DNA of 64,000 nt from Paludibacteraceae bacterium (GTDB lineage Bacteria; Bacteroidota; Bacteroidia; Bacteroidales; Paludibacteraceae). The translations under genes were made by a program, and so were the position numbers. The notes beneath the pieces are model-generated. The model did not search any database and was not told the origin of the DNA. It was given only the letters and a program-made list of their open reading frames with translations. This document shows, piece after piece, positions 3,664-53,166 of this stretch; position 1 is the first letter of the stretch, and each line of letters opens with the position of its first letter. The DNA lies in assembly GCA_051878345.1 (NCBI GenBank), contig JBJEJX010000074.1, forward strand, positions 13,389 to 77,388, read 5' to 3'.

Positions 3664-3815
3664 CACCGTGTTTTTCATGGTATTAGATTTAAGGTTAAGT
3701 AAAGATTGGGTTGTCGTGATGACAATCCTTCTTTTTTTATGGTTGAGTGTGTAGCGTTTGGAGGTTTCCGGAGTTTCCGAAAACGAACGTCCTGCTCTCA
3801 ACGGAAAATGGTATA

Positions 3816-4439
3816 ATGATTGGTCGTTACGAGAAATCTGATTTGGAAGCGGCTGTGCGCGTACTGCGGGCAGGCGGTGTGGTTGTGTACCCTACCGACA
3901 CGGTATGGGGTATCGGTTGTGATGCCACCAACGAAGAGGCGGTGAAGAAGGTGTATGCACTGAAACGGAGGGAAGACAGCAAGTCGATGCTCGTATTGCT
4001 GGATGCGCCGGGGAAACTGCAAGGATATGTGGCGGAAGTGCCGGACATAGCATGGGATTTGTTGGATTGTACGATGGAGGAAAAATCGCTCGACGCTCAA
4101 CCCTCAACGCTCAACTCACAACGCCCGCTGACCATTATTTACCCGGGTGCGAAGAACCTTGCCAAGAACCTGATAGCCGCAGACGGCAGCGTGGGTATTC
4201 GGATAACACAAGAGCCTTTCTCGAAAGCCCTCTGCGAGCGGCTGCGGCGGCCTGTCGTCTCTACCTCCGCCAATATCAGCGGCGAGCCTGCCGCCAAGAC
4301 TTTTCGGCAGATTTCCGAAGAAGTGTTGCGGCAAGCCGATTATGTGTGCCTGTTCCGCAGGGATGATGAGGAAGAGAAACAACCGAGCAGCATTATCAAA
4401 TTGGGATTGCACAACGAGATACAAATCATTCGCCCATGA
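3816..4439 (+). CDS. tsaC: L-threonylcarbamoyladenylate synthase (YrdC/Sua5 family)
   Basis: Motif VVVYPTDTVWGIGCDA. Start moved to ATG 3816 (MIGRYEKSD), which lies downstream of the promoter. Contains an in-frame CTCAAC repeat at 4093-4125. Confidence 0.8.
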   Translation: MIGRYEKSDLEAAVRVLRAGGVVVYPTDTVWGIGCDATNEEAVKKVYALKRREDSKSMLVLLDAPGKLQGYVAEVPDIAWDLLDCTMEEKSLDAQPSTLNSQRPLTIIYPGAKNLAKNLIAADGSVGIRITQEPFSKALCERLRRPVVSTSANISGEPAAKTFRQISEEVLRQADYVCLFRRDDEEEKQPSSIIKLGLHNEIQIIRP

Positions 4440-5704
4440 TAGCCCACCGCAAACAACAACTGATGTACATTTTTGCCGACCTCCTGTCTGCGGAGGCGGT
4501 GTGGCTGTTGTTCGCATTGTTTCGCAAACTGGTAAACGACGGAGTGGTCTTTGGCGTGGACACCATACTGATACCGATATTCAACTTCTATCCCCCGCTT
4601 ATCATTTATCCCCTTGTCTGCGTAGCCATTCATTACCTGTCGGGATATTATCTGCGCCCGTTCCGCAAGAGTGCCGTTCGGGAATTTGTCGTTACGTTCT
4701 GGAGCGCGGTATTCATATCATTGCTTTTCTTCTTTCTTATCATTATAGACGACGAAGTAACAAACTACGAGCGTTACTTGATTTCGTTGGCGGTGCTGTT
4801 TGTCCTGCAGTTCACGATTAGTTATCTGCCGCGTTGCCTTATTACCTACCTTACTCGCCGCAACGGTACTTACCGCACCCGCACTATCCACACCATTGCC
4901 GAAGCCAATCGTGTACGGAAGGGCACCGTGGAAGAAGTTATTATCGACCTGCCGAAGAATAGTTCCGAAAATACGCTGTACAGCATTATCAACAGACTTT
5001 ATCCTCTCGGTGTGGAGATTTCCGTTATTCCGCGGGTATACGACATGCTGACGGGTGCCGCCCGTATCGTGGAGATAGGCGGACAACCGTTGGTGCGCAT
5101 AACGGAGCATAAGATGAGCGATGCCGAACTGTGCATTAAGCGGGCAACGGATGTGGTTGTTTCGCTTTGCGTACTAGTACTCCTTTCGCCCTTGTATATC
5201 TTCCTGTATGTGCTGGTATATGCCACCTCCAAAGGCAAGGCCATTTATCGTCAGGAGCGTATAGGGTTGCATGGCATTCCCTTCCATATATTGAAGTTCC
5301 GCACGATGTGCGAAGATGCCGAGCAGGAAAAACCCATGCTGACCCATGACCACGACCCGCGTATTACCCGCGTAGGAGCCTTCCTGCGCAAATACCGGTT
5401 GGACGAGTTGCCGCAGATGTGGAATGTGCTGCGGGGTGATATGTCGTTGGTGGGACCGCGGCCCGAACGGGCATATTTCATACGGCAGATAGAGCAGAAA
5501 GCACCTTACTACTGCCTGCTCTACAAGATACGCCCGGGACTGACCAGTTGGGGACCTGTCAAAGTGGGCTATACCGATACGATTGACAAGATGGTGGATC
5601 GGCTGAACTACGACATTACATACATGGAGAATATGTCCCTCAGATTGGATTTGAAAATACTGTTTTTCACCATAGGAGTAATCATAGATGGCAAAGGAAA
5701 ATAA
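4436..5704 (+). CDS. Polyprenyl glycosylphosphotransferase (bacterial sugar transferase family)
   Basis: 422 aa with N-terminal TM helices and a C-terminal domain carrying KFRTM, DELPQ and GDMSLVGPRPE. ATGA overlap with the upstream gene. Confidence 0.85.
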   Translation: MIAHRKQQLMYIFADLLSAEAVWLLFALFRKLVNDGVVFGVDTILIPIFNFYPPLIIYPLVCVAIHYLSGYYLRPFRKSAVREFVVTFWSAVFISLLFFFLIIIDDEVTNYERYLISLAVLFVLQFTISYLPRCLITYLTRRNGTYRTRTIHTIAEANRVRKGTVEEVIIDLPKNSSENTLYSIINRLYPLGVEISVIPRVYDMLTGAARIVEIGGQPLVRITEHKMSDAELCIKRATDVVVSLCVLVLLSPLYIFLYVLVYATSKGKAIYRQERIGLHGIPFHILKFRTMCEDAEQEKPMLTHDHDPRITRVGAFLRKYRLDELPQMWNVLRGDMSLVGPRPERAYFIRQIEQKAPYYCLLYKIRPGLTSWGPVKVGYTDTIDKMVDRLNYDITYMENMSLRLDLKILFFTIGVIIDGKGK

Positions 5705-7113: not shown

Positions 7114-8064
7114 TCAAAGCCACTTTTTCCATTTGAAATAGAGCAGGATAGCCACCGTGAAGACCACCATCAGCAGGATGGCAAACGGGTAACCCAAGTA
7201 CCAATGCAGTTCGGGCATGAAATCAAAGTTCATACCGTATAGGCTCGCTACCAGCGTCGGCGGCAGGAACACCACGTTCACCACGGTGAATATCTTGATA
7301 ATCTTGTTCTGTTCGATGTTTACCAAACCGAGGAAAGTATCTTGGAGGTAGTCCAATCGGTCGAATCCGAACCGCGTGTAGTCGAACAGCGAGTTTATAT
7401 CCTTGATAATCATGGTCAGTCGCGGTTGCAACTCGGCAGGGAAGAAATCGCATTTAAGGAAGTTGCTGATCACGCGCTGTTTGTCCATGATATTCTGTCG
7501 GATAATGGTAACCTTCTCCTGCAAGTCCTTGATTTGTATCAGCACGTCTTCATCCACACTTCCGTTGTGTCCGGTCAGTTTCTGAGAGAGGGTGGTAATC
7601 ATATCCGTTGCGTCCTCAATCATATCGGCGTCTTTCTCCACGCGCGTCTCCATAAGAGCCACCAGCACGTGATAGCCCGTCGGGAAATTACGGGTGTTCA
7701 CAAACATTTTCTTCACCGTCTCGTTGAACGATGCCAACTCCACGTCTCGGCTCGTAACCAATATGCTGTTTTTCAAGATGAAGTTCACGGGCTCCATTTC
7801 GTAGTTGGCAGTGAGGAAGTTGCTGTTGGCGACGATGGAATCGTCCGTCTGTATGTATCGCGAAGACATCTCAATCTCTTCCATTTCTTCATCCTCCTGA
7901 ATATCAATCTTCAGGAATCCTTCGAGCGTGTCCTCCGTCTTGTCGCTGACATCCAGCAGGTCAATCCAGATAATATCTTTCTTGTCCAATTCTTTCAGCG
8001 TGTTGATGGTCTTTGCCACCTTTATCTTCTCGCTGTCCTTATAGAATATCCTCAGTTCTGCCAT
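7114..8064 (-). CDS. corA: Magnesium/cobalt transporter CorA
   Basis: 316 aa with the YGMNF signature and two C-terminal TM helices. Confidence 0.9.
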   Translation of the reverse strand: MAELRIFYKDSEKIKVAKTINTLKELDKKDIIWIDLLDVSDKTEDTLEGFLKIDIQEDEEMEEIEMSSRYIQTDDSIVANSNFLTANYEMEPVNFILKNSILVTSRDVELASFNETVKKMFVNTRNFPTGYHVLVALMETRVEKDADMIEDATDMITTLSQKLTGHNGSVDEDVLIQIKDLQEKVTIIRQNIMDKQRVISNFLKCDFFPAELQPRLTMIIKDINSLFDYTRFGFDRLDYLQDTFLGLVNIEQNKIIKIFTVVNVVFLPPTLVASLYGMNFDFMPELHWYLGYPFAILLMVVFTVAILLYFKWKKWL

Positions 8065-10466: not shown

Positions 10467-10658
10467 CTGCCTGCCAATTCCGATAAAGCGCAGCCCACTG
10501 GGGACGCAGGCGTCCCGCAACCGGGGTCCCCGCAAGCAACGCGCAGTGGGGTGCTCTCTGCGGTCGTTTTGGAACAAAACGGAAGATTTAGCATTGCTTC
10601 TTGCCGTTCATAAACCAACAAGAGGCTGTCTAACAAGTCAAGTTAGGCAGCCTCTTGT
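10467..10658 (+). repeat. GC-rich ~190-nt element with terminal 17-bp hairpin, copy 1 (candidate structured RNA / 3' UTR element)
   Basis: Near-identical to 13738-13929 and shares core blocks with 53000-53166. Starts about 40 nt after a stop codon. Confidence 0.7.
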
Positions 10659-10667
10659 ATTTCATAC

Positions 10668-10832
10668 TGCCCACTAATCACTGCCCACTAATCACTAATC
10701 ACTAATCACTAACCACTAACCACTAACCACTAATCACTAATCACTAACTACTAACCACTAACCACTAATCACTAACCACTAACCACTAACTACTAATCAC
10801 TAACCACTAACCACTAACCACTAACCACTACC
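10668..10832. repeat. CACTAAY heptamer tandem array (about 22 units)
   Basis: Direct reading shows cactaat/cactaac units repeated without interruption. Confidence 0.9.
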
Positions 10833-10871
10833 CCCTTATCTGCAGCAGAAAGAATAAAAAAGTAAGTTTTA

Positions 10872-10903
10872 TTTGCACAATTCAGAAAAAAGCAGTATCT
10901 TTG
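10872..10903 (+). promoter_or_regulatory. Promoter (-33 TTTG, -7 TATCTTTG) with a ~570-nt leader to the LRR gene
   Basis: TTTG at 10872-10875 and TATCTTTG at 10896-10903. No credible ORF lies before 11473. Confidence 0.6.
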
Positions 10904-11330
10904 CCCCTGAAACTGAGCAATCGGTTTCAGGTGTTCTTTCCCGTTTGTCCGGAGGTTACAAAGGACAACGGTGTACATATTGATAAAAGCGTTTGTTGAC
11001 GCTTTGCGTTTGATCAACAGAAAACTTCGCAACTTTTCGGATTTAAGGTCAAAATCAAAGTGAGCAATAGATGCTTACAGATATGGTTTTACCATATCGC
11101 ATCGGCGTTTGCAGGTGCGTTATGTTGCCATATCAGCGTAGGCTTCTTGTTGTTTATTTGACCTTAAAGGCAATGCGAAGGCCTCTGTTGATGAATAACC
11201 AACATGAGGTCTGCGCTTTTTGTATGTGTATGGTGTGCCGCCTTGGCAATTAGCGACCTGTCATCCATCAATCTCGAAAACGACTCGAAGAAAAGACAAA
11301 ACATTATGCAAATCAATATACACACCGATC

Positions 11331-11425
11331 AAGCCCCAACGGGGCGACATAAAACAGCGTAGGGTGAAACCCTACGAAAACGACACCCCCTCAAAAGCAA
11401 GCCCTATAAGGGCGACATAACTCAA
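11331..11425 (+). repeat. Triple-hairpin element, copy A
   Basis: aagccccaacggggc, cgtagggtgaaaccctacg and agccctataagggc hairpins with GACATAA linkers. Matches the reverse complement of 23186-23283. Confidence 0.75.
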
Positions 11426-13737: not shown

Positions 13738-13929
13738 CTGCCTGCCAATTCTGACGAAGCGCAGCCTACTGGGGACGCAGGCGTCCCGCAACCGGGGTCC
13801 CCGCAAGCAACGCGCAGTGGGGTGCTCTCTGCGGTCGTTTTGGAACAAAACGGGAGATTTTGCATTGGTTCTTGCCGTTCATAAACAAACAAGAGGCTGT
13901 CTAACAAGTCAAGTTAGACAGCCTCTTGT
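13738..13929 (+). repeat. GC-rich ~190-nt element with terminal hairpin, copy 2
   Basis: Aligns with 10467-10658 with only a few substitutions. Lies downstream of the LRR gene stop. Confidence 0.7.
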
Positions 13930-13936
13930 TATTTAT

Positions 13937-14003
13937 CCTAATCACTAACCACTAATCACTAACCACTAATCACTAACCACTGCCCACTAACCACTACTCA
14001 CTC
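13937..14003. repeat. CACTAAY heptamer array (short copy)
   Basis: Direct reading. Overlaps the stop region of the convergent gene 13994..15574. Confidence 0.85.
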
Positions 14004-15574
14004 CCCCCAATCCCCCTCTGCCGTGCGAGGGTGAGCAGATACTCTTTTGCGGCGTCATACTCATTGGGAATCACGCCGTCGAGGATGGCGTCTTTGATAG
14101 CCGTCTTTAGTTCCCCCACGGTGGAGCAGGGCGGCAGGTTCAGCAGTTGCATGATTTCCTCTCCCCGCACGGGCGGTTGGAAGTTGCGGATACGGTCGCG
14201 CTCCTCTAACTCCACCATTTTCTGCCGCACGAGTTGGTAGTTCCGATGAAACCGCGCCACTTTGTCGGCGTTCCGCGAAGTGATGTCGGCATTGCAGAGG
14301 AGCATTAGGTCTTCAATGTCGTCCCCCGCCTCGAAGAGCAGGCGGCGCACCGCTGAGTCGGTAACGGTGTCTTCGATGAGGTTGATAGGACGCATGTGGA
14401 GGTCCACCATCTTGATGACATAGTCCATCTTCTCGTTCTGCGGCAGTTTCATCTGCCGGAAGATACGCGGAATCATGCGGGCGCCGAGGTAGTTATGGTT
14501 GCGGAATGTCCACCCCGCCTGCGGGTCGTAGGCTTTGGATCGCGGCTTGCCGATGTCGTGCAGCAGCGCAGCCCACCGCAGCCACAGTTTGTCGGAACTC
14601 TCGGCGAGGTTGTCCAGCACTTGCAGCGTGTGATAGAACACGTCTTTGTGCCCCTTGCCGTTCTTCACCTCCACGCCTTTCAATGCTGCCAGTTCCGGGA
14701 AGACAAGCGGCAGCAGCCCCGTCTTATCCAGCAGCAGCCAGCCCGCGGAGGGCTTGCGCGAGAGCATTATCTTGTTCAGTTCATCGGCGATACGCTCGCG
14801 GGTGATGATACGAATCCGCTCGCGGTTGCGGGCGATGGCGTCGAAGGTGTCGGGATGCAGCGTGAAGCCCAGTTGCGTGGCGAAGCGTATCGCCCTCATC
14901 ATGCGCAGAGGGTCGTCGGAGAAGGTGATGTCGGGGTCGAGCGGCGTGCGGATAATCATGTCCTGCATGTCCTGTATGCCGTTGAAGGGGTCGAGCAGGG
15001 TGCCGTAGCGCCCGCCGTTGATACAGATGGCGAGGGCGTTGATGGTGAAGTCGCGGCGGTTCTGGTCTTCTTCGAGGGTGCCGTCTTCCACGATGGGGTT
15101 GCGCGAGTCGTGGCGGTAACTCTCCCTGCGCGCACCCACAAACTCCAACTCTGTCTCGCCGCGTTTCACCTGCGCCGTGCCGTAGGTGCGGAAGACCGAG
15201 AGGTGCGCCCCCTTGCCGAGACGCTTGGCAACGGCCTGCGCCAGTTCGATACCGATGGAGGGCTTGGACCCTCCAAACTCGGGACCCTCCCCATCCCTCC
15301 CTACGAGGGAGGGGGAAAGATTGCCATTTATAGACGAAGGTAATCTATTCTCTCCCTCCCTTTGTAGGGAGGGGCGGGGTGGGTCGCTTACCCTCCCCCT
15401 TTGCAGGGGGAGTTGGAGGGGGTCCTTGGTCTTCACCACCACGATGTCAATATCGGTGGAAGGGCGGTGCAGTATCAAGTCGCGCACCCAGCCGCCTATC
15501 ACGTAGCAGTCCAACTGCAAACGGTCTGCCTCCTCGCCTACCAGATGAAGAATGGGGTTATCTAACGATTGCAT
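13994..15574 (-). CDS. tRNA nucleotidyltransferase / poly(A) polymerase family protein with HD domain (CCA-adding type)
   Basis: Start moved to ATG 15574 (MQSLDNPILHLVGEEA). Motifs seen are GGWVRD, DIDIVV, RRDFTINAL and the HD-region HDIGKP. Carries a ~50-aa in-frame repeat insertion. Confidence 0.8.
   Translation of the reverse strand: MQSLDNPILHLVGEEADRLQLDCYVIGGWVRDLILHRPSTDIDIVVVKTKDPLQLPLQRGRVSDPPRPSLQREGENRLPSSINGNLSPSLVGRDGEGPEFGGSKPSIGIELAQAVAKRLGKGAHLSVFRTYGTAQVKRGETELEFVGARRESYRHDSRNPIVEDGTLEEDQNRRDFTINALAICINGGRYGTLLDPFNGIQDMQDMIIRTPLDPDITFSDDPLRMMRAIRFATQLGFTLHPDTFDAIARNRERIRIITRERIADELNKIMLSRKPSAGWLLLDKTGLLPLVFPELAALKGVEVKNGKGHKDVFYHTLQVLDNLAESSDKLWLRWAALLHDIGKPRSKAYDPQAGWTFRNHNYLGARMIPRIFRQMKLPQNEKMDYVIKMVDLHMRPINLIEDTVTDSAVRRLLFEAGDDIEDLMLLCNADITSRNADKVARFHRNYQLVRQKMVELEERDRIRNFQPPVRGEEIMQLLNLPPCSTVGELKTAIKDAILDGVIPNEYDAAKEYLLTLARQRGIGGSE
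15266..15425. repeat. Composite GGGAGGG-palindrome element inside a coding region
   Basis: ccctccctacgagggaggg, tccctccctttgtagggagggg and ccctccccctttgcaggggg hairpins with an AT-rich spacer. Same architecture as the intergenic copies at 48129-48240 and 52524-52631. Confidence 0.85.
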
Positions 15575-16559: not shown

Positions 16560-16955
16560 GCCCCTTGATTGTCTGTCCTTTGTCCCTCACCCTTTGTCCC
16601 TCGCCCTTTGTCCTTCGCCCTTTATCCTTTGTCCCTCCCCCGCCTCCCTCCTGCCTCGTCCCCTGCCTCCCGCCTATCCCTTGCCTACCTCTCGCCCGTC
16701 CCTCGCCAATCTTCCGCCTGTCTCTCGTCTGCCTCGTCCCTGCTACCTTCCCCCGCCCTTTTTCGGTCAAATCCCACCTTATCCTTTCCGCTACCTTTCC
16801 GCTACCCTTGCGCTACCTTCGCGCTACCTTTAGGCAACCTTCTGCCCGCCCGTAGAGTCACCGCACATTACGGCTCTACCGACCTGCGACCGACCCGCGA
16901 CAGACCCGCGACAGACCCGCGATAGACCCGCGATAGACCCGCGACAAAAAATCGG
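16560..16955. repeat. Composite simple-repeat block (CCTTTGTCC units, CGCTACCYTT 10-mers, GACCCGCGAYA 11-mers)
   Basis: Direct reading. The right half matches 36772-36903 and, inverted, 56869-57237. Confidence 0.85.
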
Positions 16956-17053
16956 CTGCGTTCGGGGAGCCTGAGGTTCGGACATACGATGGCGGCAAGC
17001 GATGCAATAGAAAACCTCCTTATCCCGTTTTTTATCAAAAAAAAGAGTTTTTG

Positions 17054-19539: not shown

Positions 19540-21270
19540 TTATCTTTTGTTGAGCGTTGTTATGTTCATTGTTTGTGCACAGGATATGTGTGCGGAACGT
19601 AGAAATGACGAACAATAATCGGTGGGTATGAAATGAAGAACGGCAACTGACGAATACAAAGTGCGAGAAGTAGCGCAGTTGGTAGCGCACCACGTTCGGG
19701 ACGTGGGGGTCGGGCGTTCGAGTCGCCTCTTCTCGACATACGGCGATTCCGAGAAATCGGAGTCGCTTTTTTCATTACTATCACCACTGTATTTCGCTGA
19801 TAATCTTGAAGATACACGAAATACCTCATTTACTACAGGTGTTCGATAATTCATATTTTTTTTATTATAGAACACTCCTTCTGGGAATATCAGCTCTTGC
19901 AATTTCTGTCGACCATGAAAATCTAACTCTTTCCAGCAATCTTCTAATCTACAAGCCATTAGCTCTGCAAACTCAGCCATCTTCTTGGTGTTCGATAGTG
20001 ATTCCTCCACTTCCTCCAGTTGTAATTGAATTTTGTTCTTCTCATCCGTCAATTTTTTTATTGCGATATTATATGTGTTTTGGTTAATATCGCCGATGGC
20101 AAACCTATATTCTACATTTTCTATTTGCGTTTCTATTTCTGTTAGATTCCTTTTGACTAAAGCACTATTTTGGGCTTTGGCACTATAATACTGTGTCATC
20201 TCATTATTGATAATCTCATTAACAATTGGAAATAATTCAATCTTGATTTGATACTGTGCTAATAATGTTTCATAATTTTCATGTAATTCCTTGGCGGATA
20301 TGTTTGCACAGCACCCCTTGGTATTACATTTGTAGTAATAATACGTTTTGTTTTGTCTGGAACGTGTATAACCAGTTAATGCCCCTCCGCAATCTTCACA
20401 AAATACATGCCTCTTCAGGGGGAAGGGTATTGTTTCTTTAGCCTGCGTATAGCCTATATGAGCTGCTGAATTTACTTGCTCAAAAGTAAGTTTATCAATA
20501 ATAGCCTCATGATTTCCTTGGATAATAGCCCCATCGCCCAACCTGGGATGAACTATCAATCCACAATAGAAAGGATTTTTTAAGATTTTGTTCAAATGTT
20601 TTGCTGTAACAGTTAATCCTATTGAATGTAATTTATTAACAATTTCCACTTCCCTTATTCCTTGCGCGCGCCAAATCCATGCTTTTTTTAAGATTTCGCC
20701 TTCTGGAGTAATACTAATCGTTGTAACTCCACCTATTTTTTTTCTTTCATAACCTAATGGAAGTTGAAACGGCCAGTTCCCTCTTTCTAATTGTGCTTGC
20801 TGTCCTTGCCTAATCTTATCGGTTCGCATAGCATTATCAAAATTCCCGAGTAGTAAAGAAAGATTCTCAACAAAGTCCCCAACTGAAGAATCTGGATCCG
20901 AGGCTTGAGTTGCCGAAATTACATATATTCCGTTTGCTTTCAATTTAGTTTTTGTTACAATTGCTTCGTTTGCACGGCTAAACCTATCAAAGGAATATAC
21001 AAGTATTATATTTACTTCTTTGTCTTTCAACGCCAATTGAATCATCTCTTTGTATAATTCACCTTCCGTCTTACCGCTTTCGTGCTGTCCCCCACAATAA
21101 TACTTAATATAAATACCATTATCAGCGGCATATTGTTCACAACGCTCCTTTTGAGTATTAAGAGAGCAATTCTCCTTTTCTTGTCTCTCACTAGATACTC
21201 GTGTCCAAACTATAGCCACTTTTCTAACTAATTTGCTGTATTGTATAGTTTCTCTTCTAACTTTGCTCAT
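19540..21270 (-). CDS. Large serine recombinase (native C-terminus probably near 19775; ORF runs on through host DNA)
   Basis: Resolvase catalytic N-terminus (VAIVWTRVSSERQ, SFDRFSR), recombinase domain, Cys-rich zinc ribbon (CEDCGG...YYKCNTKGC) and coiled coil. The last ~75 codons are antisense to the tRNA-Pro terminator, the tRNA and its leader. Confidence 0.85.
   Translation of the reverse strand: MSKVRRETIQYSKLVRKVAIVWTRVSSERQEKENCSLNTQKERCEQYAADNGIYIKYYCGGQHESGKTEGELYKEMIQLALKDKEVNIILVYSFDRFSRANEAIVTKTKLKANGIYVISATQASDPDSSVGDFVENLSLLLGNFDNAMRTDKIRQGQQAQLERGNWPFQLPLGYERKKIGGVTTISITPEGEILKKAWIWRAQGIREVEIVNKLHSIGLTVTAKHLNKILKNPFYCGLIVHPRLGDGAIIQGNHEAIIDKLTFEQVNSAAHIGYTQAKETIPFPLKRHVFCEDCGGALTGYTRSRQNKTYYYYKCNTKGCCANISAKELHENYETLLAQYQIKIELFPIVNEIINNEMTQYYSAKAQNSALVKRNLTEIETQIENVEYRFAIGDINQNTYNIAIKKLTDEKNKIQLQLEEVEESLSNTKKMAEFAELMACRLEDCWKELDFHGRQKLQELIFPEGVFYNKKNMNYRTPVVNEVFRVSSRLSAKYSGDSNEKSDSDFSESPYVEKRRLERPTPTSRTWCATNCATSRTLYSSVAVLHFIPTDYCSSFLRSAHISCAQTMNITTLNKR
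19664..19736 (+). tRNA. tRNA-Pro (anticodon CGG)
   Basis: Hand-folded cloverleaf. Acceptor CGAGAAG/CTTCTCG, D arm GCGC-AGTTGGTA-GCGC, anticodon arm CCACG-TTCGGGA-CGTGG, T arm GGGCG-TTCGAGT-CGCCT, discriminator A. Total 73 nt. Confidence 0.85.
19743..19772 (+). terminator. Intrinsic terminator after tRNA-Pro
   Basis: gcgattccga-gaaa-tcggagtcgc followed by tttttt. Confidence 0.7.
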
Positions 21271-21629
21271 GTTTACCTATCTTTTTTTGCCATAGATCAC
21301 AGACAATTATAGCATACAGATACAAAGAACTTAATACCCTTTGTTGCTCATCAGAATCTGTGATACCTGCTTTTAATAATAGATTGTTATACTTCTTATT
21401 ATCCAACATACAACACGACCATTATTTTCGTGCTGTGGGTTAGAAAACTGGTAGCAATGTTCATATAATATATCCTCATAGTAATACTGTTATTTGTGAG
21501 CAAATATAGGACTTTTATTTGAAATAAGAAATAGCTATGAATAATTTTTTTGAACAATAATGAAAATAAATAGGATATTTGTAATTGTTATCCGTTTTTT
21601 TTAGAACAGCAAAACAAATTTCTGCCTAA

Positions 21630-22280
21630 TCAGATTCTTTCAAAGATTTTTTTGACACGTTGAACTGTAGAAATTCCTTTACCAGTAATTTTTGCAACAT
21701 CACGTATTGACATACCTTTTTTAAGATAGCCAATAATATCCTCATGCTTCCGTATCACTTCCTCTCTACTCATTGTTGAACCCTTTCGCCTCCCGACAAC
21801 TTTCTCACCCTGATGTTGAGCTCTAAAATTATCATATCCGCTTTTTAATCTAAATTGAATACTCTCCCGCTCTATTTGTGCGCATGTAGATAGAGTAGCC
21901 AGCATGATGGGAGCAAAGACACTTGGCTTACCCTCGTCATCAAGCAATAAAAAATGTTCTTTTTGTAGGTATAGATTAATTTTATAATCCACAAACGCTT
22001 TCACAGTTTGGAGGACGTCAAAAGCGGAATGTCCTATTCTGCTTAATTCTGAACAAAGACAAATGTCTATGTTATTTTCTATGGCATACTCCATCGCTGT
22101 TCTCAGCACAACTCGATCTTGATTTTGTTTCCCGCCAGAAATATACTCTTCAAAAACACTCCTCACTTCATAGCCCATACTCATGGCATAGTGTTGCAAA
22201 TCCAACACCTGTCTATCTGTAGATTGTCGATTTCTCTCAATAGAGGACGAAACTCTTGCATAAATAATAGCCGTTTTCAT
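21630..22280 (-). CDS. Small serine recombinase (resolvase/invertase family) with C-terminal HTH
   Basis: 216 aa with the MKTAIIYARVSSS catalytic-Ser motif and the C-terminal HTH MSIRDVAKITGKGISTVQRV. Confidence 0.85.
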   Translation of the reverse strand: MKTAIIYARVSSSIERNRQSTDRQVLDLQHYAMSMGYEVRSVFEEYISGGKQNQDRVVLRTAMEYAIENNIDICLCSELSRIGHSAFDVLQTVKAFVDYKINLYLQKEHFLLLDDEGKPSVFAPIMLATLSTCAQIERESIQFRLKSGYDNFRAQHQGEKVVGRRKGSTMSREEVIRKHEDIIGYLKKGMSIRDVAKITGKGISTVQRVKKIFERI

Positions 22281-22683
22281 AATATGTTTTTATGTTCAAA
22301 TAATCCAACGAGTACAACTAAAACAGTATATTCTTATGTCCAATCAAGATTTTTTGAATACACATTTTTCTTGAATACACTTGCTTCTTACCAACGATAC
22401 AAAGTTACAAAAAATTATTGACATATGCAACTGGATATGTTTTAGAATCAATCTTTTTAAGTTATTTTTTCATCTTTCTTCGAAAATACAGGCATACACG
22501 AAAACAGGTGATAATTTTCAAAATAACGTCATAAAGAAAAAGAAACTCTTTTGAGTCTCTCGGATGGCTTCTATTACTTATTTGTTGAATTAGCACTCCT
22601 ATCTTGTAGGAATGGTCAGCAAACGATTCATGTAGTGAGAGTTTGTGAAAAGGCCTAATTGGAACTACCAAATTGCCATATTT

Positions 22684-23139
22684 TTAACATTCAGCCTTCT
22701 CTTTTCTTAACTTCATAAAAAACATAATAGCTATTATCAGCGCCATACACAGCGGCAGGGAGAGGAATACGGAGAAGTACCATAGTATGTCCACCCATAG
22801 CTTGGCATGGTTCACCTTGACGAGCCCGTCGGCGTTTATGTAGCGGTATTCGTTGATAGTCAGGGGATAGCCGTAGTTGTTGACCATCGCATTGTCGTAG
22901 ATTCTTACGGACTTGCCTGTTGTATCGGTGTATATGCCCGACTCAGGGAACTCGGTCTCCGCCCACGCTGAGTCGGAGGTAGTGAGCATCTTCCAGTCGC
23001 GCTGTAGGTGGGCATACTGTTCTTCCCAAGGGCTCGTAGCAAAACGATGGTACTGCGCATCGTAGTAGGAGCAACTCGTGAACAATGCGATTATCATCCC
23101 AACTTGAAGGGACACCAGAAAAAAAATCATTCTTTTCAT
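22684..23139 (-). CDS. Hypothetical lipoprotein with C-terminal TM helix
   Basis: 151 aa with signal peptide and lipobox (IIALFTSC) and a hydrophobic C-terminal segment. Confidence 0.55.
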   Translation of the reverse strand: MKRMIFFLVSLQVGMIIALFTSCSYYDAQYHRFATSPWEEQYAHLQRDWKMLTTSDSAWAETEFPESGIYTDTTGKSVRIYDNAMVNNYGYPLTINEYRYINADGLVKVNHAKLWVDILWYFSVFLSLPLCMALIIAIMFFMKLRKEKAEC

Positions 23140-23185
23140 ACGCTATTTTAAGGCAATGATATACAAGTTGACCAACAATTCAAAA

Positions 23186-23283
23186 TTGAGTTATGTCGCC
23201 CCGTTGGGGCTTACTTTAGGGGGGGGACTTCCCCACGTAGGGACGAGTCCCTACGCTGTTTTATGTCGCCCCTTCGGGGCTTT
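23186..23283 (-). repeat. Triple-hairpin element, copy B
   Basis: gccccgttggggc, cgtagggacgagtccctacg and gccccttcggggc hairpins. The reverse complement aligns with 11331-11425. Confidence 0.75.
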
Positions 23284-23880
23284 CGTTCTCTTCCATATCC
23301 TCTCGCGCAAAAGACAAAGTATTTTCCGTAGGGTCGGAGGGTGGCAGGTGATATGTAGTTTCTTGGATGCCGTTGTGGACTCACCTATCACGTTCAGCGT
23401 GAAAGTCTTATTGCGCCAAATACGAACGGATAGGCTTGTTTCACCATGCAGTTGGCTTTTCGAGATGCCATGGATGGCACATTCGCCGTTTTTTGTTTTC
23501 CACGAAAGACGGATGATATCTCCCCACTCCACTTCCGTTTTATCTGCCTCAAATGAGTAGATATACGCATCGTTGTTACCCAAGCGATAGGTATATTTTC
23601 GGTATCCGGCGGATGAACAGAAATAGAGCACAATATCTTCCTGACCGCCCCCGATAGGTATCTCCTTTTGCTTATTGGTTGTGAGATAAAATGTTCTTTC
23701 TCCACATACCGCAAATGCTGAGCGTATATTGGTACCATTCCAACGGAGAATAGCATTCGTTTTCGGCGCACCGTTCAGGTTTTCCCATGCTATGGACACG
23801 ACAGGCCATGTTGCACCACAAACCTCACATATCGCAGATGCATCATTGTTTGTTGATTCACAATGTTTACATGTCCACAT
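23251..23880 (-). CDS. Zinc-ribbon protein with beta-rich C-terminal repeats
   Basis: 209 aa with C4-x2-C7-x10-C18-x2-C21 at the N-terminus. Starts 11 nt downstream of the kinase gene. Its 3' end overlaps repeat copy B. Confidence 0.6.
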   Translation of the reverse strand: MWTCKHCESTNNDASAICEVCGATWPVVSIAWENLNGAPKTNAILRWNGTNIRSAFAVCGERTFYLTTNKQKEIPIGGGQEDIVLYFCSSAGYRKYTYRLGNNDAYIYSFEADKTEVEWGDIIRLSWKTKNGECAIHGISKSQLHGETSLSVRIWRNKTFTLNVIGESTTASKKLHITCHPPTLRKILCLLRERIWKRTKAPKGRHKTA

Positions 23881-23891
23881 TGCTTTCGCAT

Positions 23892-25124
23892 TTATTTGAT
23901 GAGAGTTCCTTTTAATTTCGGTTTTACAGATGCTTCAGCGGCAGAAGCCGAAGATGATTTTACCTTTAGTGAATGCTTATCCGGCTCTACGTGTTCTGGC
24001 TTATCCAGCGGCTTATCTATTTCTGACTCTTTCGATGAAGTAAGTACTGCATCAGAAGCATCTTTACGCAACTTTAAGACCAGCGACTTTGGCAATTTCA
24101 AGCGTGGAAACACAACCGGCAGTGATTTGTTTCCTTTGGGCTTGCGTTCTTCTTCTGTCATGGTAGCATAGTCAGGACGAGGGCATCGAGCGTCTTGCTT
24201 AGCGGGAACAGGCACTCTGGAGATGTCTATCTTCTTCAGTTCATTAAACACTTGCAGAATATTCGGTCGATGATTCGGATCCTTCTCAAGCATAGATACC
24301 AAAAGAGATTTTACGCCTCTTGTTATATTCTCGCTATAAGGGATTCCGACCGATTCTCCGGCATTGGTTGCCGCATAGGTATATATGTACTTGGATTTGT
24401 CGAATAAGGGTCTCTCGCCGCTGAGATATTCGCAGAAGATGATGCCGAGTGAATAAATATCCGCTTTTGTGGTTAACACACTGCCGGGGAGCTGTTCCTC
24501 TTCATCGGATATATAGTCAAATACTTCGGGTGCGTAATACTCAGGAGTGCCGACAACAGCCTGTCGGTCGGCAGGAGGAGCGGCTTCGAAATAGGAGTCA
24601 TCGAAATCAATCAGTTTGGTGGTATAAATACCTGATGCTGTTTTCTTGATGAGTATATTCTCCGGTTTCAAATCTCCGTGTACAATGTGGTTATTGTGAA
24701 GAATACGGAGGCTGGAAGCAAGGCTCCTCAAGATGATAATAATTTCTTTGAAAGACAGTTTCGCCACTTCTTTCGGGTTCATGGTAGTGGTGTCCACCCA
24801 CTCACTAATCTTGTAGTAGGAAGTATCATGGAGCATCAGTTCTTTCGCGCAGACAAGGTTGCTTCCCTCGGAGCATGCCGCATTGGTAATCCTCATTATG
24901 TTGCGTTGATGCGCTTCGAACTCAACGCACATATTCCGCTTATATGCTTTTGTTTTCTCACTTCCCGGGCTATCCGCAGTCGGATATTTGGGAGAGAGAA
25001 ACTCTTTTATGAACCAACGTTTCCCGTCTTTGGTTGCCGAAGTTATTCTGCTCCGTCCTCCGGCGACCCGAAAATCTGCTTCGAGCAAGTAGCGTCCAAG
25101 ATATTTTCCTTTTCCAAGTGTCAT
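23892..25124 (-). CDS. Ser/Thr protein kinase (Hanks type) with low-complexity C-terminal tail
   Basis: 410 aa with WFIKEF (Lys), HGDLKPENIL, IDFDDS and GTPEYYAPE. Confidence 0.85.
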   Translation of the reverse strand: MTLGKGKYLGRYLLEADFRVAGGRSRITSATKDGKRWFIKEFLSPKYPTADSPGSEKTKAYKRNMCVEFEAHQRNIMRITNAACSEGSNLVCAKELMLHDTSYYKISEWVDTTTMNPKEVAKLSFKEIIIILRSLASSLRILHNNHIVHGDLKPENILIKKTASGIYTTKLIDFDDSYFEAAPPADRQAVVGTPEYYAPEVFDYISDEEEQLPGSVLTTKADIYSLGIIFCEYLSGERPLFDKSKYIYTYAATNAGESVGIPYSENITRGVKSLLVSMLEKDPNHRPNILQVFNELKKIDISRVPVPAKQDARCPRPDYATMTEEERKPKGNKSLPVVFPRLKLPKSLVLKLRKDASDAVLTSSKESEIDKPLDKPEHVEPDKHSLKVKSSSASAAEASVKPKLKGTLIK

Positions 25125-25156
25125 ACCAAGTAGGAATTTATAGTTTTATCGGTTTG

Positions 25157-26185
25157 TCAGTTCTCTGAGCCAAGCAGCAGTTCTGCCCCTTCCTTATAGG
25201 CATTCCATATCGTATCCATTGCTTTGGGGAGTTCGTTCATCTGCGATTGATAGAGCTCGTATGGTCGGATAAACGCTTTCATTAGACATTGATGCCGTTT
25301 TACGAGTGCTTTTTTCCAATCCTCGAACGATAATCCAATCATGGTGATGGCGAAGGAGTAGTCATCGCCTGATATATCCAACAGCATGTTATCCATATGG
25401 TTTACCCAATCGTGTACATTGTCGGACATATACAACGTGTCGAGCAGCAGTTTTTCGAAATGCATCGGTGTCATCACATACCCGAAACATCCGTCTCTGC
25501 ATGATATGAGAATCACCGGCGCATCGGACAAGAATTGTAACTTGCTGATATAAAACGAGTCGCTTTGAGAAATAGCATTGCTCAAAGGCGGGTCGTTATG
25601 CAAATTGAATAAGGCATCTCCTCCCCCTCTGACATGGTCTTGCGAGGCTTGCAACAGCCCTTCTTCGCGTAAAATATAGTTACGCGAATCACCAGCCCAG
25701 TAACTATAGATATCTATGCCGCCTTTGCTCGTAGCCCACGACATCATCGCCATGGTGGTGGGCAAGATTTTGGACATCGTGGATCGGAGTTTTGACGGAA
25801 CGATATGTAGGTCTTCTTTGATATTCTCCATCGCAGCCTTAATGGTATTCTCTAAGGAGGTTGTATCAAAGTTCATGCCGTTACCACTATTCTCTTCCGC
25901 GAACGCCAACGTAGTTTCCCTAACGAGACGGGAGGCAATATATGCGTCTGTATGTATTTCTCCTGCTGGCAATGTTCTTATGGCACTTCCGGCGCCCCCC
26001 ATTCCGTCAAACGTAGCCAAAACGCCACAGGAGAAATCCGAAGAGAGCCATAGGATCGGATCGGCATCTTCTCCGGCATTTTCTTTTCGGGCATGATTTT
26101 TCGAGTCCGAGAGCACCTTGGTTACATCCGACATTGATAGTCCCGACCTGTCGGGACGACAAACAGAATAAGCAGATAGTATCAT
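25157..26185 (-). CDS. PP2C-family protein phosphatase-like protein
   Basis: 342 aa with FDGMGGAGSA, YWAGDSRNYILRE, QDH and SCRDGCFGY. The start may instead be the internal Met at 26134. Confidence 0.7.
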   Translation of the reverse strand: MILSAYSVCRPDRSGLSMSDVTKVLSDSKNHARKENAGEDADPILWLSSDFSCGVLATFDGMGGAGSAIRTLPAGEIHTDAYIASRLVRETTLAFAEENSGNGMNFDTTSLENTIKAAMENIKEDLHIVPSKLRSTMSKILPTTMAMMSWATSKGGIDIYSYWAGDSRNYILREEGLLQASQDHVRGGGDALFNLHNDPPLSNAISQSDSFYISKLQFLSDAPVILISCRDGCFGYVMTPMHFEKLLLDTLYMSDNVHDWVNHMDNMLLDISGDDYSFAITMIGLSFEDWKKALVKRHQCLMKAFIRPYELYQSQMNELPKAMDTIWNAYKEGAELLLGSEN

Positions 26186-26200
26186 GTCTCAGCATCCCCA

Positions 26201-26926
26201 TTAAATAGAGTTCATAATTGCATCCAAGATTTGGGTGTAGTCCGTATCGGACAATCCATCTCCTGCTTTAGCGGGCCAGTGGGTTACCTCGTTCCATGTG
26301 GAGGAAATAGTTGACCAAACTTCACATTCGGGTGCAAACAGACACAGTCGCTTGGAACTTTTCGGCATAAGTGCGCCTTGAGGCGCATCCCACATATCGG
26401 TGAGCTCGTCCATATCTTTCGGCATTTCGGACGGGTATTTTGCTCCGGCGAACTCACGTCCTTCCTCAAACGTTAGTGGAGTCACATCGGTGAAGAGCAC
26501 AATAATGTGTCGCCGTTTGTTTCCTCCCATGTCCCAATCGGAACGCATGGCTTCAGTCAATGCTTCCAATCCGTTTTCACGCCAACCTTGCGAAGAAGAC
26601 ATTGAGCCTCCCTTAGCATCCAGATGGTCCACATACGCTTTGAGCTGCCCTTCTTCGTTTTCCATTTGTTCTTCATTGCTCAGAACAAAGAACTCAGATT
26701 TTTTTAACGCATCTTGATTATCGTATTCAAAATTTTTGAAACTGATAACTCGAATACGCAGTTGGCTCACCGATTTCCCTTTCTCGTTAGCCACACGAAC
26801 TAAGTCGGGATAGAAACGGAGGATGTTTTCCTTAACCGTACTAAGGAGCGAACCCATAGAACCTGTGGTGTCCACCACAAAAACAATGTCAACGTGGTAC
26901 TTAAGACCAAAATTATTTTCTGCCAT
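26201..26926 (-). CDS. von Willebrand factor A domain protein (TerY-like)
   Basis: 241 aa. MIDAS-like VDIVFVVDTTGSMGS with a later LFTD strand. Confidence 0.75.
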   Translation of the reverse strand: MAENNFGLKYHVDIVFVVDTTGSMGSLLSTVKENILRFYPDLVRVANEKGKSVSQLRIRVISFKNFEYDNQDALKKSEFFVLSNEEQMENEEGQLKAYVDHLDAKGGSMSSSQGWRENGLEALTEAMRSDWDMGGNKRRHIIVLFTDVTPLTFEEGREFAGAKYPSEMPKDMDELTDMWDAPQGALMPKSSKRLCLFAPECEVWSTISSTWNEVTHWPAKAGDGLSDTDYTQILDAIMNSI

Positions 26927-26945
26927 ATTAGTAAAAATTTAAGTA

Positions 26946-27167
26946 TTATAAATCTATCCATTCATCCTCTGCTGACTCAGCAGAGTGTGTTTTCGGCTGA
27001 TGCTTTGCCGCAGCAGGTGGTATCTCATCCGTTGTTTCAATGGGTGTTTCGGCTGCTGCTCTGCCGGCAAAATAGGCATTGTATTCCCGAACGAAACTAT
27101 CGGGAAACATCTCGCGGTCTATCTCTTCATCAGTTACGTACCTAAGGTCCTTATAGTCTTCTTCCAT
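26946..27167 (-). CDS. Small acidic hypothetical protein
   Basis: 73-aa ORF packed between operon genes, overlapping the upstream ORF by 17 nt. No recognisable motif. Confidence 0.45.
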   Translation of the reverse strand: MEEDYKDLRYVTDEEIDREMFPDSFVREYNAYFAGRAAAETPIETTDEIPPAAAKHQPKTHSAESAEDEWIDL

Positions 27168-27903
27168 AACACTTCAGCAAGCAAATGTTAATACGTTCCT
27201 GCCACGAGCACTCAAATGAGAATCCACGCTTCTCAAGGCGGTAGGCAATTTCTTTACTTATAGTATCTAACTCCGGCAGACTCCATGCGCCTGATTCGGT
27301 GTTTTTATTCCGAAAGTGTTCCGAATATACATCCCACATCAACAAACGCAGACATCCAAACTCTTCCAACATCTCTTTCTGACGATCATAGTCATATTCG
27401 CGGAGATTGGTAAAGCAATATGCATACATGGCATCGAAACTTACCGCAGCATCCAGCATCACATCTCTTCTCTTTGTTCGAATCCGCTTGTTGACCTTTA
27501 TCTTGGTGAGATAGCGAGCCATTAACTCATTAAGTTCTAAGTCATGCGCTTGAATCATCTGACCCCAATAGCAATCCGGCAGTTGCTCAAATACCGCTTT
27601 CTTATAGGCGGACTTATCCGGATAGAACTCAGCAAAATATGCAAGCTGCTGTTTCTCCAATAGCAACATCGACTGCACCTGCTCCCTATCGAATAGGGTA
27701 ATTTCCGACATCACACGCAAACCTGATTTATTCTCTGCATAGTATTCGAAATGGATGGGTAACTTATTCCACCATAGGTCTGCTATCTCTGCCCAAACGG
27801 CTCTCATCAGCGCCTCATCTTCGGGGTGCTTTGGTAACCACTCTTGGGTTACCCAGTTATCTTCGAATGTACCTAAAATTGATATATCCATATCTTGTTT
27901 CAT
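27151..27903 (-). CDS. Hypothetical protein (first gene of the vWA-PP2C-kinase operon)
   Basis: 250-aa ORF that appears helical. No motif recognised. Confidence 0.6.
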   Translation of the reverse strand: MKQDMDISILGTFEDNWVTQEWLPKHPEDEALMRAVWAEIADLWWNKLPIHFEYYAENKSGLRVMSEITLFDREQVQSMLLLEKQQLAYFAEFYPDKSAYKKAVFEQLPDCYWGQMIQAHDLELNELMARYLTKIKVNKRIRTKRRDVMLDAAVSFDAMYAYCFTNLREYDYDRQKEMLEEFGCLRLLMWDVYSEHFRNKNTESGAWSLPELDTISKEIAYRLEKRGFSFECSWQERINICLLKCYGRRL

Positions 27904-27913
27904 AATAGTTTAT

Positions 27914-28055
27914 TGGATTAAGGATAAAGGACAATTTCTTTGAACAAAGGATTAAGGACATAGGATTAAAGACGAAATAGTTTTGACTCTGAAAACTCAT
28001 AGACGAAGGCAATAAGTCTTTCATCCTTCATCCTGTATCTTTCAAATCCTTAATC
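27914..28055. repeat. Low-complexity inverted arms (GGATTAAGGA / TCCTTAATCC family) inside the island
   Basis: ggattaaggataaaggac...ggattaaagacg faces gtctttcatccttcatcctgtatctttcaaatccttaatc. Related to 15584-15765. Confidence 0.7.
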
Positions 28056-28060
28056 AAAAT

Positions 28061-28297
28061 TTAGCATCCGGGGTACCAGCAATAGCCTCCGTCGTCCGAA
28101 TGTTGCATGCCTGACGATGTCTGAGCGATAATGCGGTTGCCCCGTACCATCAAGTCGTAGAAGTGGTCAGTGTACGATGTGTGTCGCGTCTGCCAATTGT
28201 AATAATTGCAGGAATTCAAGGTACCTGCCTCCAAGATTCGATCATTGTTCGAATCAATACGGATAATTTCCTCTCCGTACTGAACCATACTCGACAT
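28061..28297 (-). CDS. Small hypothetical protein with one Asp-box-like motif
   Basis: 78-aa ORF. SDDGGYCW fits the SxDxGxxW Asp-box pattern. A -7 box lies about 210 nt upstream. Confidence 0.4.
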   Translation of the reverse strand: MSSMVQYGEEIIRIDSNNDRILEAGTLNSCNYYNWQTRHTSYTDHFYDLMVRGNRIIAQTSSGMQHSDDGGYCWYPGC

Positions 28298-28508
28298 AAA
28301 GCAAATAATAGTTTATTAAAAATACACATAAAGGGAGTTCCATCTTCTGCCGACACATCGTAACTGCGACCAACTCTGTGTCATTAGAAAAAAGAACTTC
28401 CCTGTTATTCTTTTCGCTTAATAACTCCTTTTGCTCATCGACGTCGCAGGTCTCACAAAAGAAAGCACCCGCTTTCGTTCAGAAATCGTTCCTGTTCGAA
28501 AGCGAGTG

Positions 28509-28516
28509 CAAAGGTA
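28509..28516 (-). promoter_or_regulatory. Candidate -7 box (TACCTTTG on minus strand) inside the island
   Basis: The plus strand reads caaaggta within gcaaaggtactgc, the same context as the chromosomal promoters. No well-spaced -33 element is seen. Confidence 0.45.
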
Positions 28517-52993: not shown

Positions 52994-52999
52994 GCATCG

Positions 53000-53166
53000 G
53001 CTCCGCAGGCGTCCCGCCTGCGGACTCCCCGCGAGCAACGCGCAGCGGACTGCTCTCTGCGGGCGGTGTGGAACAAACCGAAAAGTCTTGCGCTGGTCCT
53101 AACTCCTTGCTAACAGTTAACATACAAAGGGGGTGTCTAACTTGACTCGTTAGACACCCTCTTTGT
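53000..53166 (+). repeat. GC-rich element with terminal hairpin, divergent copy 3
   Basis: Shares CGCAGGCGTCCCGC, CCCCGCGAGCAACGCGCAG, GCTCTCTGCGG and GGAACAAA with copies 1 and 2. Terminal hairpin at 53125-53166. Confidence 0.6.

Follow-up and report, generated by a model that had tools for sequence, protein, structure and literature searches.

A probable lineage-restricted mosaic repeat between stop codons and terminator-type hairpins in a Paludibacteraceae genome

In this study, we have analyzed a GC-rich element of about 190 nucleotides (nt) that occurs three times within a 64,000-nt stretch of DNA (the window) from a Paludibacteraceae bacterium (contig JBJEJX010000074.1, positions 13,389 to 77,388), and we have demonstrated that this element is modular in composition. 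Its terminal hairpin, here called the T-unit, exists independently of the GC-rich insert that precedes it, and that insert shows a presence/absence polymorphism at an orthologous site in sister lineages. [quoted passage not shown] No described family matches the element, and the kind to which it belongs, species-specific intergenic palindromic or mosaic repeats, is well known.

The GC-rich insert and the terminal hairpin

The three copies and the parts delimited within them are located as follows.

10467..10658, plus strand: copy 1, comprising a 5' extension, the GC-rich core, and the terminal hairpin, 37 nt 3' of the stop of a DUF3298 gene (10429)
10565..10581, plus strand: small hairpin of copy 1, CGUUUUG-GAA-CAAAACG, which holds the GGAACAAA block
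10618..10658 (arms 10618-10634 and 10642-10658), unstranded: T-unit of copy 1, a 17-7-17 palindrome, ACAAGAGGCTGTCTAAC / GTTAGGCAGCCTCTTGT, located by an inverted-repeat search
13738..13929, plus strand: copy 2, 144 nt 3' of the stop of a BspA-type leucine-rich repeat (LRR) gene (13593) and convergent with the CCA-adding enzyme gene (13994-15574, minus strand)
13888..13930, unstranded: T-unit of copy 2, which scores like a terminator on either strand and lies where the LRR and CCA-enzyme genes converge
53004-53166, plus strand: core block of copy 3 including the hairpin, about 8 nt 3' of the stop of a heavy-metal-associated (HMA) domain gene (52993)
52994..53123, plus strand: GC-rich insert of copy 3, about 120 to 130 nt with boundaries placed to within about 6 nt, between the HMA TAA (52991-52993) and the terminator-type hairpin
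53124..53166 (arms 53124-53141 and 53149-53166), unstranded: T-unit of copy 3, orthologous to a solo hairpin after the HMA stop in the sister locus L062

The two parts were told apart by a comparison with sister lineages, in which about 109 kb around the orthologues of the TonB-dependent receptor/HMA and CCA-enzyme genes was searched with profiles of the element. The GC-rich insert that follows the HMA gene in the window is missing from the orthologous site in all four sister loci that cover it (L062, L054, L059, and L060). In the window, CACTAA at the 3' end of this gene is separated from ACATACAAAGGGGGTGTCTAAC... by about 130 nt of GC-rich DNA, whereas L062 reads CACTAA-GCACTAAACACACCC-AAAGAGGCTGTCTAAC..., with a hairpin of the same type as that in the window; L059 and L060 read CACTAA-ACATACACAAAGGGGC... 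and carry a different hairpin in that place. The distance from the HMA TAA to the hairpin in L054, L059, and L060 is 8 to 29 nt, with no GC-rich core. Because the C terminus and stop codon of the HMA gene are ancestral, the insert starts right after the stop codon, which is where the extra DNA of copy 3 begins. No copy of the insert was found in the roughly 109 kb of sister sequence, compared with three in the 64-kb window.

The complementary observation is that T-units occur without the core: nhmmer located them in L052, L054, and L062. The solo T-unit after the CCA gene in L052 is nearly identical to those of the window and has an A/C-rich 5' lead, TAAACANC, and a T-rich tract behind it; the one in L062 lies 15 nt 3' of the HMA stop codon, and that in L054 is a degenerate T-unit after the HMA gene, again followed by a T-rich tract. 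Weaker nhmmer matches at L054 18102, L053 18057, and window position 49337 were judged to be noise. Each of the three copies in the window does end in a long hairpin, as first noted from the sequence, with 17 to 18 pairs, a stem that is 94 to 100% paired, and a 7-nt loop. Across six T-unit sequences, 96% of the 17-pair stem is paired; both sides have changed at three of the pairs, and every one-sided change yields a G-U pair on the sense strand. The pairing of the T-unit is thus maintained by compensatory changes, which makes it a palindrome of the terminator type. Its most likely role is that of an intrinsic transcription terminator, partly bidirectional. The copy 2 hairpin passed a terminator scan on both strands; the tails behind copies 1 and 3 are only weakly T-rich.

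The three copies themselves conform closely to their initial description as a GC-rich element repeated behind plus-strand genes, with two nearly identical copies, a divergent third, and a set of shared blocks. All are co-oriented on the plus strand, 8 to 144 nt 3' of a plus-strand stop codon, and the genes upstream of them are unrelated to one another (DUF3298, BspA-type LRR, and a small HMA-domain protein). The order of units after the stop codons is fixed, with an inner GC-rich hairpin module followed by the small hairpin and the T-unit hairpin, and the GC content of the core is 66 to 70%, versus 50% for the window. Between copies 1 and 2 there are 9 differences in 192 positions, all of them outside an identical run of 86 nt (10497-10582), a length reached in about 4% of random placements of 9 differences (P about 0.04). 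Copy 3 has 78% identity to copies 1 and 2 over a 97-nt ungapped block (53004-53100; family D9), in addition to the terminal hairpin, and has no counterpart of their first 30 nt (10467-10496); blocks of 14, 19, and 11 nt are unaltered in it despite the 22% overall divergence. The blocks common to all three copies are CGCAGGCGTCCCGC, CCCCGC(A/G)AGCAACGCGCAG, GCTCTCTGCGG, and GGAACAAA, and two long shared patterns each have exactly three matches in the window, where shuffled sequences give expectations of 0.02 and 0.00. A further (fourth) copy is inferred on a 740-nt ENA contig, which contains a 53-amino-acid (aa) open reading frame (ORF), P0242, whose residues 17 to 49 are 76% identical to the plus-frame translation of the core and whose termini are unrelated to it.

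The likeness between copies 1 and 2 continues past the T-unit into a downstream array of heptamers, for a total of 265 nt at 90% identity (family D7).

10665..10837, plus strand: (CACTAAY)n array behind copy 1, part of the 265-nt copy 1/2 duplication (families D1 and D7)
13931..13993, plus strand: (CACTAAY)n array behind copy 2, abutting the stop of the CCA gene

A short version of the array, GTTAGTAGTTAGT, is also found in L052 at the CCA-gene 3' end, which marks the array as native there; copy 1 carries it as well, and therefore the segment that was duplicated or recombined was larger than the element. This shared flank shows copy 1 to be a segmental duplicate of the copy 2 region, so that the window has only two independent copies. 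The two are direct repeats around a single gene, the LRR gene, at a spacing of 3271 nt, which would be explained either by segmental duplication or by a Campbell-type event in which a circle with the LRR gene on it was integrated. In either case, the duplication argues for recombination-based spread over precise transposition.

The same arrangement is what might be expected if the element were an integron-attC-like recombination site, with the 17-7-17 palindrome (GTCTAAC...GTTAGRC) as the crossover site and the LRR gene as a cassette. An inverted repeat, a 7-nt spacer, and a second inverted repeat are the typical layout of a tyrosine-recombinase site. The attC core consensus (RYYYAAC and GTTRRRY) is matched exactly within the hairpin, and, as with attC sites, the element is palindromic and follows a gene in the same orientation. 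However, these motifs abut the 7-nt loop of a near-perfect stem, whereas those of a true attC site occupy the outer ends of a palindrome that is imperfect and bulged. The window encodes no tyrosine or integron integrase, only serine recombinases about 6 to 8 kb away, in an island by tRNA-Pro. Furthermore, the hairpin stands alone after housekeeping genes in sister species with a T-rich tract behind it, as terminators do; its compensatory changes keep the pairing and not the sequence; and a copy 1/2 duplicate that takes in the flanking heptamers is a better fit to homologous recombination. An attC-like function is therefore considered improbable.

Mobility of a different kind was proposed in the first-pass annotation, which listed a MITE-like element among its candidates. 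The broader part of that proposal has gained ground, since a mobile repeat fits better with an insert that is missing from four sister loci, but the element does not look like a classical MITE, that is, a deletion derivative of an insertion sequence (IS) mobilized in trans by the transposase of the parent element. It is small, noncoding, present in several copies, and polymorphic for presence, as a MITE would be, and insertion sequences are active in the sister genomes, given that L059 has an IS3-family element next to its orthologue of the TonB-dependent receptor gene (the gene immediately upstream of the HMA gene). On the other hand, a search with a 6-nt seed found no terminal inverted repeats, only internal hairpins; the sole end-to-end match, in which the left edge resembles a hairpin arm over 10 nt, is in copy 1 and is missing from copy 3. 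No consistent target-site duplication was evident either. When the copy 3 junction, CACTAA/GCATCGG...CAGTTA/ACATAC, is set against the empty sites of L062, L059, and L060, there is no duplication or, at most, an ambiguous TAA or GCACTAA, and the flanks of copies 1 and 2 have nothing in common. The 5' boundaries differ among copies 1 and 2, copy 3, and the P0242 copy; copy 1 was copied along with flanking heptamer repeats; and no transposase, RAYT (HUH/Y1-type), or tyrosine recombinase is encoded in the 64-kb window. We regard a classical MITE as unlikely.

A mosaic repeat accommodates these observations: each copy is made of two parts, the T-unit and a GC-rich insert of about 120 to 150 nt placed between the stop codon and the hairpin. 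The insert may have spread by recombination or templated copying at hairpins, or through a single-stranded DNA (ssDNA) enzyme acting in trans, rather than by classical cut-and-paste transposition. It would be transcribed within the 3' UTR of the upstream gene, where its effect may be neutral or, at most, REP-like on the mRNA 3' end, and it would not encode a dedicated regulatory RNA.

RNA and small-protein readings of the element

The main rival explanation is that the element is a functional RNA, either a 3'-UTR module or a small RNA (sRNA) derived from the 3' UTR. The core would then be cotranscribed with the upstream gene, end at its own terminator, and act in cis on mRNA stability or translation or in trans, with an exposed conserved segment such as AAGCAACGCGCAG as the seed. 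Several observations are consistent with this explanation. The copies are co-oriented with the upstream gene, 8 to 144 nt past its stop, and end in a terminator-type hairpin; the center is better conserved than the flanks; and a 13-nt loop, RAGCAACGCGCAG, is the same in four copies from two lineages except that its first base is A or G. The whole-element folds are also more stable than expected, with z scores of -4.6 and -5.1, and RNAalifold on the three copies yielded a model with several G-U pairs on the plus strand and with six pairs changed on both sides, the covariation counts being formally above those of shuffled sequences.

The structural evidence weakens on dissection, however. The good z scores of the whole element are owed to the T-unit: the core alone is no better than shuffled sequence (z of -0.85 for copy 1 and -1.9 for copy 3, with the minus strand about equal), and its minimum-energy folds differ between copies 1 and 3, the latter having a private, perfect 10-bp hairpin, UCCGCAGGCG/CGCCUGCGGA. 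The small hairpin reads CGGUGUG-GAA-CAAACCG in copy 3 (53064-53080), with one compensatory pair and one broken pair (RNAalifold helix 7). The covariation counts carry little weight, as they come from three sequences, effectively two independent ones, and from a structure derived from those same sequences. The Rfam search proposed in the first-pass annotation returned no family for the element: in a whole-window scan with Rfam 15, the matches at gathering score were FopS, two tRNAs, and two Acido-Lenti-1 sites, none of them within the element, and permissive scans of copies 1 and 3 gave hairpin-driven noise (E of about 0.7 or higher).

The insert is missing from the orthologous HMA 3' end in four sister loci, and in a sister lineage the central module of the element is found in either orientation and also within coding sequence. 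Inspection by eye revealed no Bacteroidetes-type promoter ahead of the copies, so that any RNA would need read-through from the upstream gene. A search of both strands of the window for AAGCAACGCGCAG or its complement, allowing up to 2 mismatches, found matches at chance frequency and no complementary target site. The earlier suggestion of a 3'-UTR or small-RNA module is thus borne out with respect to location, 3' of genes, but not with respect to a conserved module, and we consider a functional RNA possible but distinctly less probable than a mosaic repeat. Because the evidence points to a lineage-restricted mosaic repeat, little weight attaches to the element as a regulatory-RNA candidate; the case illustrates a pitfall, in that conserved GC-rich blocks with a terminator behind genes can be mistaken for an sRNA.

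A small protein of about 50 aa encoded on the plus strand, with ATG codons at 10461 and 13729, was also considered. Copies 1 and 2 contain ATG-initiated ORFs of 50 or 51 aa, the upstream difference between the two ORFs is a 3-nt in-frame indel, and about four of the seven differences inside the ORF are synonymous when copies 1 and 2 are compared by eye; moreover, the 53-aa P0242 is 76% identical over 33 aa and is found in an ENA assembly. However, copy 3 has no start codon in that frame, and between copies 2 and 3 there are 2 synonymous versus 14 nonsynonymous codon changes, with 56% aa identity versus 78% nt identity. The N and C termini of P0242 are unrelated, as would be expected if a conserved stretch of DNA had been called spuriously, neither of the two ORFs in the window is recorded as a called gene, and only 2 matches were found among 1.84 billion representative proteins, one of them to a repetitive protein of 2339 aa. 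No reading frame of the element has a coding-like substitution pattern; although the minus strand is open, its ORFs have 1 to 2 synonymous versus 14 to 15 nonsynonymous codon changes and look noncoding, as had been suspected. A small protein is accordingly very improbable.

Mini-modules in hairpin loops

The center of the insert is itself a separable unit of 36 to 40 nt, with the form GGGGT-CCCC...loop...GGGG-T-GCTCTC and short GC-rich CCGC/GCGG flanks that can pair. One form of this mini-module, designated beta, is found in all three copies.

10523..10558, plus strand: beta module of copy 1, GGGGTCCCC-GCAAGCAACGCGCAGT-GGGGTGCTCTC, 36 nt
13794..13829, plus strand: beta module of copy 2, identical to that of copy 1
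53022..53057, plus strand: beta module of copy 3, a variant with GGACT...GGACT (GCGGACT...GCGGACT)

In a sister lineage, beta and a second form, alpha, are discrete insertions of 38 to 39 nt in hairpin loops, one of them in frame within mreC. At L056 12536-12571, an intergenic site upstream of the HMA gene, a beta module (GCTCTCGTA) is located in the loop of a REP-like CTCCCCC/GGGGGAG hairpin. The filled hairpin reads CTCCCCC-TT[GCGGGGTCCCCACAAGCAACGCGCAGTGGGGTGCTCTC]GTA-GGGGGAG, in which the brackets enclose the 38 nt that make up the central block of the window element, whereas at that site the hairpin is empty in the window, L055, and L059 and reads CTCCCCC-TTTGTA-GGGGGAG; the module lengthens the L056 hairpin into one long stem (z of -4.3). 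The alpha module has the same termini as beta (GCGGGGTCCCC ... GGGGTGCTCTC) and a different middle, GAAAAATCTTTGATTTTT, and is found in the neighboring hairpin of L056 and also in L057, L058, and L059. Within L056 mreC (7296-7351), alpha forms a clean 39-nt in-frame insertion of 13 aa (AGSPKNLDFWGAL; GCGGGGTCCCCGAAAAATCTTGATTTTTGGGGTGCTCTC) in the loop of a TCCCCC/GGGGGA hairpin, with no target-site duplication; the corresponding loop of window mreC (47780) is empty and reads TTTAA. The central module occurs in both orientations and within coding sequence in this lineage. A third kind of nested hairpin, with a CCCTCCCCC/GGGGGAGGG stem and the inner sequence TGTTATCCCTGTGAAGGGTATCGAAACAGGGCTAACA, was observed in L056 (9083-9137) and L057 (47-101), so there are more module types than alpha and beta.

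These comparisons bear on an observation made at the outset, that a pentamer pair flanking the central block changes in concert. The pair indeed reads GGGGT...GGGGT in the first two copies; the third has GGACT...GGACT, within a repeated unit that is actually 7 nt long, GCGGACT. The concerted pentamers are a family signature of the mini-modules and not covariation: a compensatory change was ruled out, as the copy 3 changes break three pairs in the RNAalifold consensus fold, and a target-site duplication was ruled out by empty hairpin loops without GGGGT.

The more unusual aspect of these data is that modules of 38 to 40 nt lie precisely in hairpin loops, including loops inside ORFs, and we offer this as a lead. 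On the basis of three to four filled/empty comparisons in one sister lineage, we tentatively suggest, at a low level of confidence, that the GGGGT...GGGGT unit represents a family of 38- to 40-nt mini-elements that insert specifically into existing hairpin loops, in DNA or RNA, without target-site duplication. If so, such elements would have entered REP-like hairpins, terminators, and hairpins inside ORFs, and the palindromes would have become nested step by step, with the 190-nt element as the largest outcome. The paired identical pentamers might then be a recognition or cleavage signature, and the loop-directed mechanism, by an HUH/Y1-type ssDNA enzyme or by templated strand switching, would be one undescribed in Bacteroidales. 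The clean loop insertions of 38 to 39 nt provide a tractable start for asking how mini-modules move, and looser patterns are proposed for collecting the repeat family, namely, GCGGGGTCCCCN{14,20}GGGGTGCTCT and GGCTGTCTAACN{6,9}GTTAGRCAGCC.

Weight of the evidence, host range, and neighboring repeats

Several points weigh against a mosaic repeat. The copies studied number three, effectively two independent ones, plus one protein-level trace, and the mobilizing mechanism is pure inference because the window encodes no transposase, RAYT, or tyrosine recombinase. The better conservation of the center relative to the flanks, seen in the 86-nt run and in the 14-, 19-, and 11-nt blocks, could reflect selection on function, and a uniform orientation with respect to the upstream gene in three of three copies is not required of purely selfish DNA. 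In addition, this explanation leaves the identical pentamers within each copy unaccounted for.

The known distribution of the element is narrow. The closest relatives of the window's CCA-adding enzyme and TonB-dependent receptor, at 88 to 90% aa identity, are from metagenome-assembled genomes (MAGs) of uncultured Paludibacteraceae, and a related contig, L055, is from a pig-gut metagenome. The exact pattern CAACGCGCAGN{4,9}GCTCTCTGC had 50 matches in 185,579 species genomes (one per GTDB species), all of them chance matches in unrelated phyla with no flanking blocks; this pattern is too specific to the flanks of the window copies, and the L056 beta copy would not match it. A scan of JGI metagenomes gave a single chance match in a coding region, scans of viral contigs for the core, the alpha and beta termini, and the T-unit gave none, and blastn of copy 1 against plasmids and phages found nothing. 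The translated minus-strand ORFs, used as protein queries in case copies had been miscalled as genes, likewise had no matches. A likeness of 63391-63423 to the tail of the HMA gene lies within an unrelated ORF and was dismissed.

The window also contains companion GC-rich hairpin units of the form GGACCCNCCCC..CCCTCCC-TACAAAG-GGGAGGG, which are found both between genes and in frame in housekeeping genes and which resemble Rickettsia palindromic elements (RPEs).

15281-15425 (CCA enzyme, minus strand), 47780 (mreC), and 52244-52264 (TonB-dependent receptor): CCCTCCC hairpin units within genes
48139-48219, 52534-52553, and 52600-52632: CCCTCCC hairpin units between genes

An insertion of about 45 aa in the CCA enzyme consists of three such units; it is absent from homologues of 80% identity and shorter in an 89% relative. 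Uncultured gut Paludibacteraceae thus carry several interacting families of small palindromic repeats, at gene ends and in frame in the CCA enzyme, MreC, and the TonB-dependent receptor. As far as our searches went, RPE-like repeats have not been described for Bacteroidales.

The element is reminiscent of several known repeat systems. Pneumococcal BOX elements and enterobacterial ERIC/IRU elements are noncoding, transcribed, intergenic sequences of about 100 to 200 nt with submodules, some with internal insertions at fixed positions, and have no obvious transposase. The element is likewise modular, noncoding, intergenic, of about that length, and without an obvious transposase; unlike them, it is tied to a terminator-type hairpin and its internal module is also free in other hairpins and ORFs, and there is no sequence relation. 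REPINs are moved by RAYT transposases, whereas no RAYT gene was seen in the window, and the copy number of the element also appears low in the window and the sister sequences.

REP sequences and BIMEs are short GC-rich palindromes in transcribed extragenic DNA, with proposed effects on termination and mRNA 3'-end stability (PMC3733652). As in those systems, palindromes that lie outside genes, at their 3' ends or between convergent ones, are combined here into mosaics, and the units also occur separately in sister genomes; however, the present unit is a composite of 120 to 190 nt and belongs to a different phylum, REP/BIME being known from Proteobacteria. REP palindromes have a conserved GTAG or CGTC tag at one end (PMC3733652), whereas neither tag is found at the ends of the T-unit or core hairpins; GTAG does appear in the companion CCCTCCC hairpins when they read ...TTTGTAGGGAGGG, as they often do, but at the junction of loop and stem and not at the end. 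The RPEs mentioned in the same source (PMC3733652) are paralleled by the companion repeats, which are small palindromes in frame in seemingly functional genes, but not by the 190-nt element, which is extragenic in three of three copies and has no sequence relation to them. BrickBuilt, a MITE of Porphyromonas gingivalis, contains a 23-nt minisatellite and has small inverted-repeat ends and promoter activity (PMC4596501). It too is a species-restricted intergenic repeat of Bacteroidales with a tandem array, here of 7 nt; in contrast, the present element has no terminal inverted repeats, and its tandem array is outside the element and native to one locus.

Several further features of the window were recorded. 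Intergenic regions abound in short arrays of tandem repeats, whose periods are 7, 11, and 15 nt, as in (CACTAAY)n, (ACCCGCGACAG)n, and (GGAATGAGTGGGTAG)n; they are present at the following positions, and several of them recur at distant loci in both orientations.

10665-10837, 13931-13993, 16771-16960, 36763-36905, 56864-57040, 57287-57346, and 58105-58157: intergenic tandem arrays

Sister contigs often end within a few nucleotides of repeats (L061 at 4439-4453, L057, L058, and L063), either 14 nt past the HMA stop or in the middle of an alpha module, and short-read assemblies seem to break at the repeats. A Bacteroidetes-type promoter motif, TTTG...TAtcTTTG (10870-10912), stands between copy 1 and the LRR gene, and the next 310 nt or so (to 11228) fold into one very long imperfect hairpin (z of -5.7) that ends in a terminator-like stem and a T run; Rfam had no match to 10870-11228, which is a candidate unannotated noncoding RNA. 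The two Acido-Lenti-1 matches above gathering score (11331-11425, minus strand, and 23186-23282, plus strand) lie in inverted repeats of about 95 nt, some 11.8 kb apart, that bracket the LRR gene, copy 2, the CCA-enzyme and topoisomerase genes, tRNA-Pro, and two serine recombinase genes. From about 19540 to 31200 there is a probable integrated island beside tRNA-Pro (19664-19737), which contains genes for a large serine recombinase, a resolvase, and two Ser/Thr protein kinases, several ORFs without a Pfam match, and a short LRR gene of the BspA type whose internal repeats are 69 nt long. A DUF5686/CarboxypepD_reg-like protein is split into two minus-strand ORFs (58227-58919 and 58957-60870), possibly by a frameshift, pseudogene formation, or an assembly error. 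Finally, positions 3668-3741 hold a full-length match to FopS, a Bacteroidetes small-RNA family, at 77 bits against a gathering score of 56.

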